Shown: positions 38,624 to 44,917 of the stretch, one piece after another
Numbering within the stretch: the first letter of the stretch is position 1
Layout of the letters: each line of letters begins with the position of its first letter
From: a virus
Lineage: Duplodnaviria > Heunggongvirae > Uroviricota > Caudoviricetes
Reading direction: 5' to 3' (one strand)
Length of the DNA: 45,293 nt
IMG/VR virus record: IMGVR_UViG_2571042653_000011
Translations under genes and position numbers: made by a program
The notes under the pieces: generated by a model
The model's database searches: none
What the model was told of the DNA's origin: nothing
The model's input: the letters and a program-made list of their open reading frames with translations, nothing else

Positions 38624-38634
38624 GTGGAGTGGAT

Positions 38635-40983
38635 ATGGCAGCAGTAAAAATCTCAGGTGTGCTGAAAGATGGTGCGGGAAAACCAATACAGAACTGCACT
38701 ATTCAACTGAAGGCAAAGCGTAACAGCACCACGGTACTGGTGAACACGGTGGCCTCTGAAAATCCTGATGAAGCCGGGCGTTACAGCATGGATGTTGAGT
38801 ATGGCCAGTACAGCGTCACCCTGCTGGTTGAAGGTTTTCCGCCTTCACATGCCGGGACCATTACCGTCTATGAAGGCTCCAGACCAGGTACGCTGAATGA
38901 TTTTCTCGGTGCCATGACGGAAGATGATGTCATGCCGGAGGCATTGCGCCGTTTTGAGGCAATGGTGGAAGAAGCGGCACGCAACGCCGAAGCCGCCTCT
39001 CAGAGCGCAGCGGCGGCAAAGAAATCCGAAACTGCAGCGGCATCATCGAAGAACGCGGCGAAAACGTCAGAAACGAATGCAGCTAATAGTGCACAGGCGG
39101 CAGCGACCTCAAAGACTGCATCGGCAAACTCCGCGACAGCAGCCAAAAAATCAGAAACCAACGCGAAAAATAGCGAGACAGCCGCAAAGACGAGCGAAAC
39201 CAACGCAAAGTCCAGCCAGACGGCAGCGATAACCAGCGAAACGAATGCTAAAGCCAGTGAAACTGCGGCAAAAAACAGCCAGGTTGCAGCAGCCGAAAGC
39301 GAGAGCGCGGCAGCCGATTCTGCGACTTCAGCAGCTGGATCAGCAACTGCTGCGGCTAACAGTCAGAAAGCAGCGAAGACGAGTGAAACTAACGCAAAGT
39401 CCAGCCAGACGGCAGCGAAGACCAGCGAAACGAATGCCAAAGCCAGCGAAACTGCGGCGAAAAACAGTCAGGATGCGGCGGCCCAAAGCGAGAGTGCTGC
39501 AGCTGGTTCTGCAAGTGCGGCGGCTTCTTCTGCCACTGCATCAGCCAACAGTCAAAAAGCTGCAAAAACCAGTGAAACCAACGCAAAGGCGAGCGAGACT
39601 GCGGCGACTAACTCGGCAAAAGCATCCGCTGCAAGCCAGATGGCTGCAAAAGCAAGTGAAGACGCAGCGAGAGAGTATGCAAGCCAGGCAGCAGAGCCGT
39701 ATAAATATGTCTTACAGCCACTGCCTGATGTGTGGATACCGTTTAACGATTCACTGGATATGCTTGCTGGCTTTTCGCCTGGTTATAAGCAAATAACTGT
39801 AGGTGATGATGTTATTAAAATGCCATCCGATAAGGTTGTTAGCTTCAAACGCGCATCAGGTGCAACATACATTAATAAATCAGGTGTATTAACCGTTGCT
39901 GAAGTTGACGAACCGCGATTTGAACGAGAAGGTTTGCTGATTGAAGGACAGAGAACAAACTATTTCAGAAATTCAAATACACCAGAAGCATGGAATAACA
40001 CGGGTAGTGTGTCTGTTGAGTCGTTCGACAGTGATAATGGGTTTAACTATGGAAGGATAACTGTTATTAATGAAAATCCGACAGCACAAGGATATCAGGC
40101 AATTGCTGTAAACACGAATGATGCTTACACCTGCCCGGCAGGTTCTTATACGACGATATCGTGTCTGACGAAAAGTGATAATTCCCGGTGTCGTGCAAGG
40201 TTCGGAAAAATGTCTGATAATGGTGCGTTTGTTTTTCATTCAGATGCAGCTCTGGATCCTGTTACGGGAAATGTTGTTCATGGAAATAATGTGACGGTGA
40301 CGGCAGAAAGAGTCGGTGAATGGTGGTTGTTTACCGCCACTCTTTTTGCAGATGAGGAAATGATAATCAGCTCAAGATTTGAAATCCTGGCGATGCCTGG
40401 AATCAGTATTATCCCCAATGGCTCTACGTTAGATATTGCGATGCCTCAGGCGGAGATTGGGTCGTACAGGACGTCATTTATCATTACTGAAGGGGCTCCT
40501 GGCACTCGCTCCAGCGACATGGTGACAATACCTGTAAGAAACAATATTCACCGATTACCATTCAGTGCTCTTGTTGAAGTTAATAAAAACTGGGATATCC
40601 CTCCCAGCAAATCACCATTAATCTTTAATGTTAAAGATTATCAGGAAAATGGTCTGTTCACGCATGGATTCCGTGGTAATAATTTCTCTGATGCCGGTTC
40701 TCCTTTTATTTCTATGGGAGGGTGTAATAAATATGTGGCAACAACCCAGAGGAAAATCATTTCAGGCTTACGTTGTGGCGCTGATGGAGATGTTCAGGCC
40801 GTATGTAATGGTGAATTATCTGTTGCGGCAAAAACAACATGGACTTCAATTGTTCCACGGGCAGTATTGCGAATTGGAGGGCAGGGCACTAATGGGGAGT
40901 ATCATCTTTTTGGTCATATCCGTAATCTGCGTATCTGGCATAAAGAATTAACTGATGCGCAAATGGGGGAGAGTATTAAATGA
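38635..40983 (+). CDS. Side tail fibre protein (Stf-like) with repeat-rich shaft and divergent C-terminal domain
   Basis: N-terminus MAAVKISGVLKDGAGKPIQNCTIQLKAK resembles lambda Stf (recall); central Ala/Ser/Thr repeats; the C-terminal third is AT-rich by eye. Confidence 0.85.
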   Translation: MAAVKISGVLKDGAGKPIQNCTIQLKAKRNSTTVLVNTVASENPDEAGRYSMDVEYGQYSVTLLVEGFPPSHAGTITVYEGSRPGTLNDFLGAMTEDDVMPEALRRFEAMVEEAARNAEAASQSAAAAKKSETAAASSKNAAKTSETNAANSAQAAATSKTASANSATAAKKSETNAKNSETAAKTSETNAKSSQTAAITSETNAKASETAAKNSQVAAAESESAAADSATSAAGSATAAANSQKAAKTSETNAKSSQTAAKTSETNAKASETAAKNSQDAAAQSESAAAGSASAAASSATASANSQKAAKTSETNAKASETAATNSAKASAASQMAAKASEDAAREYASQAAEPYKYVLQPLPDVWIPFNDSLDMLAGFSPGYKQITVGDDVIKMPSDKVVSFKRASGATYINKSGVLTVAEVDEPRFEREGLLIEGQRTNYFRNSNTPEAWNNTGSVSVESFDSDNGFNYGRITVINENPTAQGYQAIAVNTNDAYTCPAGSYTTISCLTKSDNSRCRARFGKMSDNGAFVFHSDAALDPVTGNVVHGNNVTVTAERVGEWWLFTATLFADEEMIISSRFEILAMPGISIIPNGSTLDIAMPQAEIGSYRTSFIITEGAPGTRSSDMVTIPVRNNIHRLPFSALVEVNKNWDIPPSKSPLIFNVKDYQENGLFTHGFRGNNFSDAGSPFISMGGCNKYVATTQRKIISGLRCGADGDVQAVCNGELSVAAKTTWTSIVPRAVLRIGGQGTNGEYHLFGHIRNLRIWHKELTDAQMGESIK
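39050..39620. repeat. Tandem coding repeats inside the tail fibre gene
   Basis: A ~180-bp unit (about 39190-39365) recurs at about 39370-39545 with high identity, built from shorter ~21-bp sub-repeats encoding AAKTSETNAKSSQT-like heptads. Confidence 0.6.
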
Positions 40984-42383: not shown

Positions 42384-42632
42384 TTAATGAACAAACCACT
42401 CGTCAGCAGACTCCCAGGTATCTTTCAGAGTTTCCTGAACAAAAGTTTTAGCTGAATCTTTATCGGCGGTGCGCGTAACAGAAAGGCCATCGTTGCTGGT
42501 GGCTTTTACGATCACCTCTACATCGTCATAACGCTTACTGATGCGTCGAGTTAATTCTTCCTTTAACGCATCCACAGCACCGTTTGGCATTTTAGTCATT
42601 TTCTCTTTGGCTATGCAGATCTCAATACGCAT
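42384..42632 (-). CDS. dinI: DinI-like DNA damage-inducible protein
   Basis: 82 aa; resembles E. coli DinI (MRIE...IAK ... [14 protein letters not shown]) from memory; tandem LexA boxes immediately upstream. Confidence 0.8.
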
Positions 42633-42693: not shown

Positions 42694-43791
42694 TCAAGAG
42701 GTCTTATTTCTGCTCCTTTGGAGTTCTTCAAAACGATTATGTAAAGATTTTGGATACAGTTCGGTATATACCTGCCATAGCACGTTTAATGAACGATGCC
42801 CTGTAACCTGGGCGACTTCCTCAATACTAAAACCAGCCTCAAATAAGCGACTTGCCCCTTCTCTACGCAAATCATGGTATCGCAGATCTTTAATACCTAA
42901 TTTGCTTCTTACCCTCTGAAATCCTGCGGTAACAGAAGTGCTGTTGTATGGAAAAATGAATTCAGATTTTTTGGGTTGTCGTTGGACGATATCCCAGGCT
43001 TCCCCAAGCAAGGCCACTTTCATATGGTTACCTTCCTTTTTACGTGGATCTTTCCTGTCTCTTACTAGTATAGATTTTTGTTCCTGGTCGAGATCTTCCC
43101 ATCGTAACCGGCATACTTCTCCGATTCGCATACAGGACCACACAGAAAATTTGAGGATATCAACGAACGGAATTTTTGAGCATTTATGAGTAGATCGTTG
43201 TTGAAGGCCTTCAATGAGCATGTCTAGTTCATCAGATGCTGGTCTACGATTACGACGATTTGATTTACCAATTAAACCAAGTTTAAGTAGATATGGACGA
43301 GCGGCTTTTGCTGGGTTTGATGTGTAATTAATTCCGTATACAGGTTTGGCTGCATCCAGAACACTGCCAAGATAACTAACATCGTGGCTAACAGTAGCTG
43401 GACCTGCACCGGCGTTGTTTCTCAACCTGCAATGTTCTATTACGTCATTTTCTGTTAATTCAGATAGTCTGATCGCAGAAATGTCACTATCCATAAGTAG
43501 TTCCAGCACATATCTTTTAGTACGGCCTGCTTTACCTCCGGCATTTGGGTCATTTAAATATTTGCGTAGTAAGTCACGGACTGTAAGCCCGTCAACAGCA
43601 TTTGATGATGGAATGCCATGTAGATCTAATTCCATCACTTTCTGTGTGCCCCATGTTTTGGCATGAGCATGTTTAGGGAATGTTTTGCTTTCCCTGTAAG
43701 TGATAACCCCTTTTTCTTTGATAATCACATTACAGCGATAGCGTGGTGTGCCATCGGATTTTAGTCGTTTCTCTATGTTATAGTACGCCAT
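42694..43791 (-). CDS. Tyrosine-type integrase (dusA-associated)
   Basis: 365 aa; C-terminal catalytic region with R...H.LR...Y pattern (HDLRREGASR ... LWQVY); adjacent and divergent to dusA. Confidence 0.9.
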   Translation of the reverse strand: MAYYNIEKRLKSDGTPRYRCNVIIKEKGVITYRESKTFPKHAHAKTWGTQKVMELDLHGIPSSNAVDGLTVRDLLRKYLNDPNAGGKAGRTKRYVLELLMDSDISAIRLSELTENDVIEHCRLRNNAGAGPATVSHDVSYLGSVLDAAKPVYGINYTSNPAKAARPYLLKLGLIGKSNRRNRRPASDELDMLIEGLQQRSTHKCSKIPFVDILKFSVWSCMRIGEVCRLRWEDLDQEQKSILVRDRKDPRKKEGNHMKVALLGEAWDIVQRQPKKSEFIFPYNSTSVTAGFQRVRSKLGIKDLRYHDLRREGASRLFEAGFSIEEVAQVTGHRSLNVLWQVYTELYPKSLHNRFEELQRSRNKTS

Positions 43792-43810
43792 TACACGACC
43801 TCGTTATTTC

Positions 43811-43846
43811 GGGTTCCCATAAAACGTGGGAACCTGTGCGGGAACC
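43811..43846. repeat. GGGAACC repeats between the integrase and dusA starts (candidate recombination/regulatory sites)
   Basis: Inverted pair GGGTTCCC (43811-43818) and GGGAACC (43827-43833), plus a direct copy GGGAACC (43840-43846). Confidence 0.4.
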
Positions 43847-43879
43847 TAACGCGAGAAAAATAGCCTGAAATGTTCAAAA

Positions 43880-44917
43880 ATGCACGATAATCATGAAACA
43901 CAAAAAATTAATCAAACCAGCGTGATGCCTGAAAAAAATGGTGTTTACTGGAATTCTCGGTTTAGCATTGCTCCTATGCTCGACTGGACGGACAGACATT
44001 GCCGCTATTTCTTGCGTCTGCTTTCCCGCAATACGTTGCTGTATACCGAAATGGTGACCACAGGGGCGATTATTCACGGTAAAGGTGATTATCTGGCGTA
44101 CAGTGAAGAAGAACATCCGGTAGCATTGCAACTGGGCGGTAGCGATCCGGCGGCGCTGGCGCAGTGTGCAAAGCTGGCAGAAGCGCGCGGATATGATGAG
44201 ATCAACCTGAATGTCGGCTGCCCGTCTGACCGGGTGCAGAACGGCATGTTTGGGGCGTGTCTGATGGGTAATGCGCAGCTGGTTGCCGACTGCGTGAAAG
44301 CGATGCGCGATGTGGTGTCGATTCCGGTGACGGTGAAAACGCGTATTGGCATCGACGACCAGGACAGCTATGAATTTCTCTGCGATTTCATCAACACCGT
44401 TTCCGGCAAAGGCGAGTGTGAGATGTTCATCATCCATGCTCGTAAAGCCTGGCTTTCGGGGTTAAGCCCGAAAGAAAACCGTGAAATCCCGCCGCTCGAT
44501 TATCCGCGTGTGTATCAACTGAAGCGTGACTTTCCGCATCTGACAATGTCGATTAACGGTGGTATCAAGTCGCTGGAAGAGGCTAAAGCGCATTTGCAAC
44601 ATATGGATGGCGTGATGGTCGGGCGCGAAGCGTATCAAAATCCGGGTATTCTGGCGGCGGTAGACCGAGAGATCTTTGGTTCCTCGGATACCGATGCCGA
44701 TCCGGTGGCGGTAGTGCGCGCCATGTATCCGTACATTGAGCGTGAACTCAGCCAGGGGACGTATCTTGGCCATATTACCCGGCATATGTTGGGCTTGTTC
44801 CAGGGTATTCCTGGCGCGCGGCAGTGGCGGCGTTATTTAAGTGAAAATGCCCATAAAGCGGGTGCAGACATTAATGTGCTGGAACACGCGCTCAAACTGG
44901 TGGCGGATAAGCGTTAA
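43880..44917 (+). CDS. dusA: tRNA-dihydrouridine synthase A
   Basis: 345 aa; flavin-dependent Dus TIM-barrel features with catalytic Cys (NLNVGCPS); the first ~30 codons are likely supplied by the prophage end. Confidence 0.9.

Follow-up and report, generated by a model that had tools for sequence, protein, structure and literature searches.

Integrases associated with dusA have been defined in more than 200 genomes, in which the island was shown to provide the gene with its 5' end (PMC4482086). The DAI family combines a divergent tyrosine integrase, insertion into the 5' end of the gene, a supplied replacement 5' end, ~21-bp imperfect direct repeats at the two junctions (attL, attR) and a homologue of prtN, the last being present in 64% of dusA islands (PMC4482086). 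Table S1 of that work contains 8 E. coli entries, and the rows considered here represent phage lysogens with int beside dusA and prtN near the far end (PMC4482086). Here we analyse one such locus in the IMG/VR virus record IMGVR_UViG_2571042653_000011, a stretch of 45,293 nucleotides that is called "the window" throughout; it possesses all of the listed DAI features, and no essential difference from this family was revealed.

The closest described relatives of the window are the phages 1720a-02 (KF030445, an Stx2dact phage) and mEp460 (NC_019716), in which int, the spacer and the phage-supplied start of dusA (PhidusA') share 95–97% DNA identity with the window up to the same core, and in which a PrtN-family excisionase is also encoded across attP. 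The integration modules differ from that of the window only in cargo and in a few percent of the sequence. Phage 1720a-02 inserts 100 bp into the dusA gene of Citrobacter rodentium, carries a PhidusA' ORF whose frame continues into the remaining part of dusA and has the 21-bp motif of the family with its 7-base core; in infected mice the excised attP made up 0.44% of the 1720a-02 junction reads (PMC6328086). The attL host fragment is of the E. coli K-12 type in our case, while in the published 1720a-02 case it belongs to C. rodentium.

Excision has been dissected for one dusA-specific element, IMEVchUSA3, in which int and rdfN are placed across attP from each other: RdfN, a PrtN-family protein, is needed for this process, as shown only for this element, and is sufficient together with Int (PMC8409611). 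A lacZ fusion demonstrated that the element supplies dusA with a working, although somewhat weaker, promoter and a new N-terminus, and promoter activity in the int–dusA region is documented only for this related Vibrio element (PMC8409611). The window resembles IMEVchUSA3 in the PF11112 recombination directionality factor (RDF) located across attP from int and in the new N-terminus of the same length; in IMEVchUSA3 dusA gains a new promoter and Pint is constitutively active (PMC8409611). IMEVchUSA3 is a mobilisable island with rdfN driven by the plasmid activator AcaCD, whereas in the window rdfN ends the phage early-left gene block and presumably is under phage induction control.

A similar layout is known from the KplE1 IntS/TorI and HK620/Sf6-type modules, in which int and the RDF gene are transcriptionally uncoupled as in the window, and the int promoter lies in the att arm among Int sites, predicting negative autoregulation; the int promoters of the KplE1 type do overlap att and are negatively autoregulated (PMC2951348). 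Integrases of this type target tRNA genes and have no family-level homology to the window Int. In phage lambda, xis and int are neighbours located to the same side of attP, and pL transcribes them together. Lambda and the window module have in common a tyrosine integrase, core and (here probable) arm sites and a small RDF, but in the window module attP and two plus-strand genes separate int from the RDF gene, and the target is a protein-coding gene with a replaced 5' end.

We have high confidence that the analysed region represents the attR, the right-hand junction, of a ~44-kb lambdoid E. coli prophage with a dusA-specific Int and a phage-supplied gene start. The integration module as such is already described, since the family was defined in 2015, a phage integrase with 99% identity was reported in 2019, and the excision factor and promoter in 2021.

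Organisation of the Junction

The integrase start had been placed by the first-pass annotation 88 bp from dusA and divergent to it, which agrees with the ORF limits (Table 1). The limits of int and dusA in the window also appear in the RefSeq annotation of a junction that is 100% identical. In FDAARGOS_497, where the 701-bp junction is 100% identical, the annotated order is tail fibre genes, dinI-like gene, integrase, dusA, pspG and qorA; a dinI-like gene beside int at the prophage end also occurs in mEp460 and SKA5. The hybrid dusA ORF covers positions 2–309 of the 311 positions of the Pfam Dus profile (E = 8e-105).

Table 1. Coordinates of the integration module and adjoining features in the window.
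Feature	Position	Strand	Evidence or remark
Prophage body, lambdoid	1–43983		left end begins ~254 nt before window start; attL core outside window
rdfN-like gene (PrtN family), probable recombination directionality factor	1250–1531; mechanical ORF to 1558	minus	PF11112, PHROG 1300
DinI-like gene	42384–42632	minus	PF06183, E = 1e-19; directly adjoins int
int, dusA-specific tyrosine integrase, 365 aa	42694–43791	minus	ORF; Pfam Phage_integrase PF00589
int–dusA divergent spacer, 88 bp	43792–43879		outer part of attP P arm
Inverted GGGAACC copy (GGTTCCC on plus strand)	43812–43818	minus	
Direct GGGAACC pair, starts 12 nt apart	43828–43834, 43840–43846	plus	probable arm-type sites
dusA ORF, intact, 345 codons	43880–44917	plus	Pfam Dus PF01207
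Phage-supplied dusA 5' end (PhidusA'), codons 1–32	43880–43975	plus	found in phage genomes
attR core ATGCTCGA	43976–43983		sole block identical in attP and attB; contains crossover
Host-derived dusA part, codons 35–345 and stop	43984–44917	plus	98.6% identity to K-12 dusA

The spacer, which is identical or near-identical in free phage genomes, presumably holds the promoters of both genes, that of dusA being supplied by the phage. A promoter and terminator scan of 43650–44050 returned neither sigma-70-like sites nor terminators at the scan threshold. The candidates for the DusA start are ATG 43880 and Met16 at 43925, and by-eye reading of the sequence revealed no obvious Shine–Dalgarno motif before either of them. 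The annotated start codon of dusA is contained in the block 43876–43891 (AAAATGCACGATAAT), which is conserved at the DNA level and at a constant distance from int in Enterobacterales elements, including those not located in dusA; this block may function at the DNA level, as a promoter element or a protein site, besides, or in place of, being coding sequence.

A separate feature of the prophage is the tail fibre ORF (38629–40983), in which the segment 39113–39607 holds 21-nt periodic repeats that are nested in a 189-nt duplication and encode an Ala/Ser/Thr-rich heptad-like array (…SETNAKNSETAAKT…).

Phage Origin of the dusA Start

When the segment 42694–43990 was used as a megablast query against 50,697 phage records, 12 records matched; in 10 of them, including mEp460, 1720a-02, Lys8385Vzw, SKA5 and phiSTEC1575-Stx2k, the match has 95–97% identity and a query coverage of 80% or more. 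All these matches end at query base 1287–1292, which corresponds to window positions 43980–43985. The phage virion or genome records share with the window int, the 88-bp spacer and ~104 nt at the start of the dusA frame, with homology ending at 43983, in agreement with the first-pass suggestion that the element restores the 5' end of its target gene. Because free phage genomes contain this segment and the match stops at 43983, the part 43880–43983 is recognised as phage-borne.

The base composition follows the same boundary: GC content is 37.5% in the first 104 nt of dusA (43880–43983) and 54.0% in the other 934 nt, where it never falls below 45.2% in any 104-nt window. The AT-richness of the first ~30 codons noted previously is thus real, and its cause is the one proposed, a phage-borne segment. 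Identity to the K-12 dusA is 81.7% over the first 104 nt and 98.6% over the rest, and 19 of the 32 mismatches in total fall within the first 96 nt. The first-pass annotation named as the contrary case a dusA start that does not differ from uninterrupted alleles and is devoid of att-like repeats; instead, the identity is as low as stated, and att sites were found.

One can suppose that the divergent 5' end arose within dusA, through ordinary variation between alleles or as a patch introduced by recombination, the integrase being merely a neighbour, and indeed E. coli has two unrelated native-looking dusA 5' ends, so that this part of the gene is polymorphic in the species. However, the exact 5' segment is contiguous with int in isolated phage genomes, where it ends at the core, and the lysogen attL holds the displaced host fragment, which makes this explanation extremely improbable. 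Judged by these sequence comparisons, the segment 43880–43983 is phage DNA and not an allelic variant.

Recombination Sites

The attR core, for which an alignment with uninterrupted dusA had been proposed, lies at 43976–43983 by comparison of the four att sites. The attP of mEp460 and SKA5 reads TCCTATGCTCGATAGGA, and this palindrome, common to 1720a-02 and mEp460, is the same as that of the window module. Beyond the core (the slash marks the boundary), mEp460 and SKA5 continue as ...GCTCCTATGCTCGA/TAGGATGTACCGTTTTTG..., which is not dusA, while the host counterpart in K-12 (strain DH1) is ...GCACCAATGCTCGA/CTGGACGGACAG... and the lysogen attL of KGu016 and FDAARGOS_497 is ...GCACCAATGCT(C/T)GA/TAGGATGTACCG.... 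Comparison of the four sites demonstrates that attR, present in the window, consists of the left half of attP and the right half of attB, and that attL in KGu016 and FDAARGOS_497 consists of the left half of attB and the right half of attP. Such reciprocal halves, as read from the aligned sites, are the signature of conservative site-specific recombination.

The ~21-bp direct repeats extend over the APM(L/M)DW codons and read GTTGCACCAATGCT(C/T)GATAGGA at attL and ATTGCTCCTATGCTCGACTGGA at attR; compared with the attB motif that PMC6328086 gives for C. rodentium, the att motif of the window has 1 mismatch in 19 positions. The predicted attP of the window prophage is …GCATTGCTCCTATGCTCGATAGGATGTACCG…, and the predicted restored attB is …GTTGCACCAATGCTCGACTGGACGG….

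A direct-repeat search within the window revealed no second att copy, because attL lies outside it. The left 2.5 kb of the window is 100% identical to prophage DNA that, in KGu016 and 3 other genomes, adjoins a pseudogene fragment of the dusA 5' end, and in KGu016 and FDAARGOS_497 this fragment is annotated as a 105-nt pseudogene ("tRNA-dihydrouridine synthase, missing C-terminus") just left of the gene with which the window starts. In these near-identical lysogens 254 nt separate the end of the attL core from window position 1; this core provides the matching direct repeat expected to the left of the window, and its position gives a prophage length of ~44.2 kb if the source is collinear with those lysogens. 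KGu016 has a 100% identical left end, differs in the int–dusA region at 50 of 2,224 positions and has a prophage ~355 bp shorter.

In addition, the KGu016 attL core ATGCTTGA (L005:2239–2246) differs by one base from its own attR core and from the window attR core, while FDAARGOS_497 has C at both junction cores. The one-base difference in KGu016 may mark the side of strand exchange or the outcome of heteroduplex repair.

Probable Excisionase Gene and State of the Prophage

The 93-aa product of the 1250–1531 gene matches Pfam PF11112 (PrtN) with E = 4e-23 and PHROG 1300 ("excisionase") with E = 1e-39, which supports the first-pass placement of an excisionase-like gene at the prophage end opposite to int. 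In mEp460, int (minus) is followed by attP and by two small genes on the plus strand, after which comes a PrtN-family gene (minus) annotated as excisionase. The location of attP between int and xis, unlike in lambda, was therefore predicted correctly; it is seen in mEp460 and is already in print (PMC8409611). This PrtN-family gene should be annotated as excisionase rather than as pyocin activator.

Two plus-strand genes lie between attL and rdfN in the orientation opposite to the early-left genes: one (1–573) encodes a SocA/Panacea-domain protein (PF13274, E = 2e-18), and the other (570/603–989) is an overlapping ORF of 128–139 aa with function unassigned (PHROG 19071). This pair could be a toxin–antitoxin or a defence "moron" at the prophage end; mEp460 has other genes at the SocA/Panacea spot.

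The junction might also be a fossil, with the prophage copy defective and its excision lost. Close relatives do have a small capsid-protein pseudogene fragment annotated near dinI, and the prophage length differs by 0.35–4.9 kb among otherwise similar lysogens. Nevertheless, both int and rdfN have intact ORFs, the core of attR is perfect, the window has the full set of lambdoid-sized ORFs, and activity is known for the 1720a-02 Int, which is 99% identical, so we consider a defective copy improbable.

Integrase Family and Its Targets

The PF00589 match of Int (E = 1e-20) spans residues 189–346, and the catalytic residues R222, H306, R309, H332 and Y342 occupy invariant columns in the integrase alignment A2. 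Amino acid identity is 99.2% to the 1720a-02 Int, 97.5% to that of mEp460 and 56% to that of Salinivibrio phage Smhb1; the integrases of 1720a-02 and Smhb1 were both placed in the dusA family in print, and the window Int belongs with them by homology. Since dusA integration of 1720a-02 was experimental (PMC6328086), the earlier assignment of a dusA-specific integrase is well founded. The NCBIfam search gave only sub-threshold Xer and integron-integrase matches, this collection having no dedicated model for the integrase or the RDF.

A family set was then formed from an alignment of three integrases, which yielded 80 loci in one-genome-per-species contigs (52–98% identity, more than 30 genera). 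In other genera dusA is divergent from int in 54 of the 75 loci with enough upstream DNA, and the APM(L/M)DW codons are situated 158–191 nt from the int start in these 54 dusA-adjacent loci. The Enterobacterales elements have a 30-codon "MH(D/E/G/Q)N…" leader starting 87–101 nt from int. Among complete E. coli genomes, 741 of 5,426 match at least 80% of the int–dusA junction query.

In the remaining 21 of 75 loci (L032, L036–L038, L041–L045, L047–L049, L056–L058, L064, L065, L070, L072, L087 and L088) the neighbours are, among others, a DEAD-box helicase gene and pgl-like, upp-like and NlpC-like lipoprotein genes, which agrees with the "non-cognate" targets noted in 2015. These 21 integrases are 52–66% identical to the window Int. 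Many of the 21 relatives retain the tandem repeats and a block AAATGCACGAAA ~88 nt from int, which suggests target switching with the P arm kept.

Repeats Upstream of int

The GGGAACC repeats reported earlier from the int–dusA intergenic region are present there in three copies (43812–43846), 21–55 nt upstream of the int start. In the window as a whole this heptamer is not enriched (5 copies vs 4.8 expected), but three copies within 35 bp form a local cluster, for which a rough Poisson estimate is ~2e-5 for one anywhere in the window. The P' arm, in both attP and attL, carries GGGAGCC and GGGAACC ~50–60 nt past the core, within the sequence GTGGGAGCCTATTGGGAACC.

The pattern is common in the family, where pairs of 7–10-nt G-rich repeats occur 15–50 nt upstream of int, 11–12 nt apart, with additional copies on the far side of the core. 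An exact 7-mer repeated at 11–12-nt spacing not farther than 80 nt upstream of int was found in 53 of 79 related loci, compared with 1.2 ± 1.2 loci (maximum 5) in control windows from the same loci, and in many relatives an inverted copy is located ahead of the tandem pair. The Acinetobacter prototype (supplement of PMC4482086) has the same pattern ATGGTGTAATTTTGGTGTAATG beside the integrase start, and a 12-bp repeat at equivalent places was noted without explanation in Smhb1 (PMC8537503).

The motif itself varies by lineage (GGGAACC, GGGGTGC, GGTGTAC, GGTGTCC, GGGATAC, GGGGCAC and others), and its class tracks identity within the N-terminal 60 aa of Int rather than in the remainder of the sequence (+4.0 vs −1.4 as standardised logistic coefficients), statistics in which shared ancestry is a confounder. 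At equal C-terminal identity, N-domain identity is 65–82% in pairs of integrases with the same motif and 49–62% in pairs with different motifs.

We suppose that the GGGAACC repeats are probably arm-type sites recognised by the N-terminal domain of Int. They may instead be operators bound by RdfN, by a repressor or by a host factor, or may simply belong to the divergent promoters: the repeats sit where the int promoter must be, –35/–10 boxes were annotated in the corresponding Acinetobacter region (PMC4482086), and the link between motif class and N-domain, confounded by shared ancestry, is compatible with binding by RdfN or a host factor. We consider these functions unlikely, however, given that the tandem 11–12-nt spacing is kept while the motif shifts by lineage, that the motif class goes with the Int N-terminus, and that the copies occur on both attP arms, as is the case for arm-type sites. 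If the repeats are arm-type sites for Int, the lineage-specific match of motif and N-domain suggests a readable "code" of arm-site specificity.

Two dusA 5' Ends in E. coli

Two dusA 5' sequences occur among the 5,426 E. coli genomes, exactly one per genome: a K-12 type (4,303 genomes), accompanied by DUF2713 genes between zur and dusA, and a short type (1,123 genomes), in which zur is directly adjacent. Alleles were compared using window 43880–43983, L001:1504–1607 (K-12/DH1) and L002:1369–1520 (SCU-111). Divergence between the K-12 and short types stops ~9 nt before the att core, and from ATG-3 to the core the K-12 type has 82–86% nucleotide identity to the PhidusA' leaders borne by the elements.

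Past exchange at this att site has probably left its footprint in one of the two types, and one of the two "native" starts, possibly that of the K-12 reference, may be the fixed trace of an earlier dusA-specific element. In the opposite direction, the elements may have copied an ancestral host 5' end. C. rodentium dusA is 1038 nt long with the core near nt 100 (PMC6328086); its length and core position fit either direction of exchange.

The K-12 dusA start was considered as a fossil attR, which is unproven: tblastn revealed no integrase remnant upstream of K-12 dusA, no relic of the short-type dusA 5' end was found next to zur in K-12-type strains, and K-12 homology to the element arms begins only 3 nt before ATG.

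Discussion

The anatomy of the junction is best explained as follows. Int has recombined the phage into codons 33–35 of host dusA, with strand exchange inside the core (43976–43983). To the left of the core the lysogen has phage DNA with int, the 88-bp divergent control region and a 104-nt surrogate 5' end of dusA that includes a start codon, and to the right the host dusA, in a fusion that preserves the full-length DusA frame. As this frame is kept, production of DusA most likely continues in the lysogen. The displaced 5' fragment of dusA remains as a pseudogene at attL. By analogy with the published close and related elements, an excised circle should be formed, its excision should require Int together with the PrtN/RdfN-family protein encoded at 1250–1531, and the promoter of dusA would be supplied by the element. 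Indirect support for the circle comes from the attP junction present in phage records such as that of mEp460 and from the attP reads of 1720a-02. In the circular phage, rdfN is followed by two small genes, attP, PhidusA' and int.

Early-left transcription therefore cannot reach int in the prophage, so that this gene must depend on a promoter within the P arm. The GGGAACC repeats in this arm and their P' arm copies would most likely serve as the arm-type sites for the N-terminal domain of Int, and Int bound to them could also repress its own promoter. This arrangement suggests possible autoregulation of Int from a divergent control region that also drives the surrogate dusA. Taken jointly, the arm-site code, the autoregulation of Int and the allele as an element footprint would go slightly beyond the published work, a proposal that we make only tentatively.

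The phage uses an essential-looking site in a conserved gene without inactivating this gene, and the significance of the finding is small beyond correct annotation. In ~14% of complete E. coli genomes, the annotated N-terminus of DusA and its promoter are phage DNA, and the 105-nt "dusA pseudogene" some 44 kb off marks the other end of the prophage. The correspondence between the repeats and the N-terminal domain could guide the work on arm-site recognition in dusA-specific integrases.
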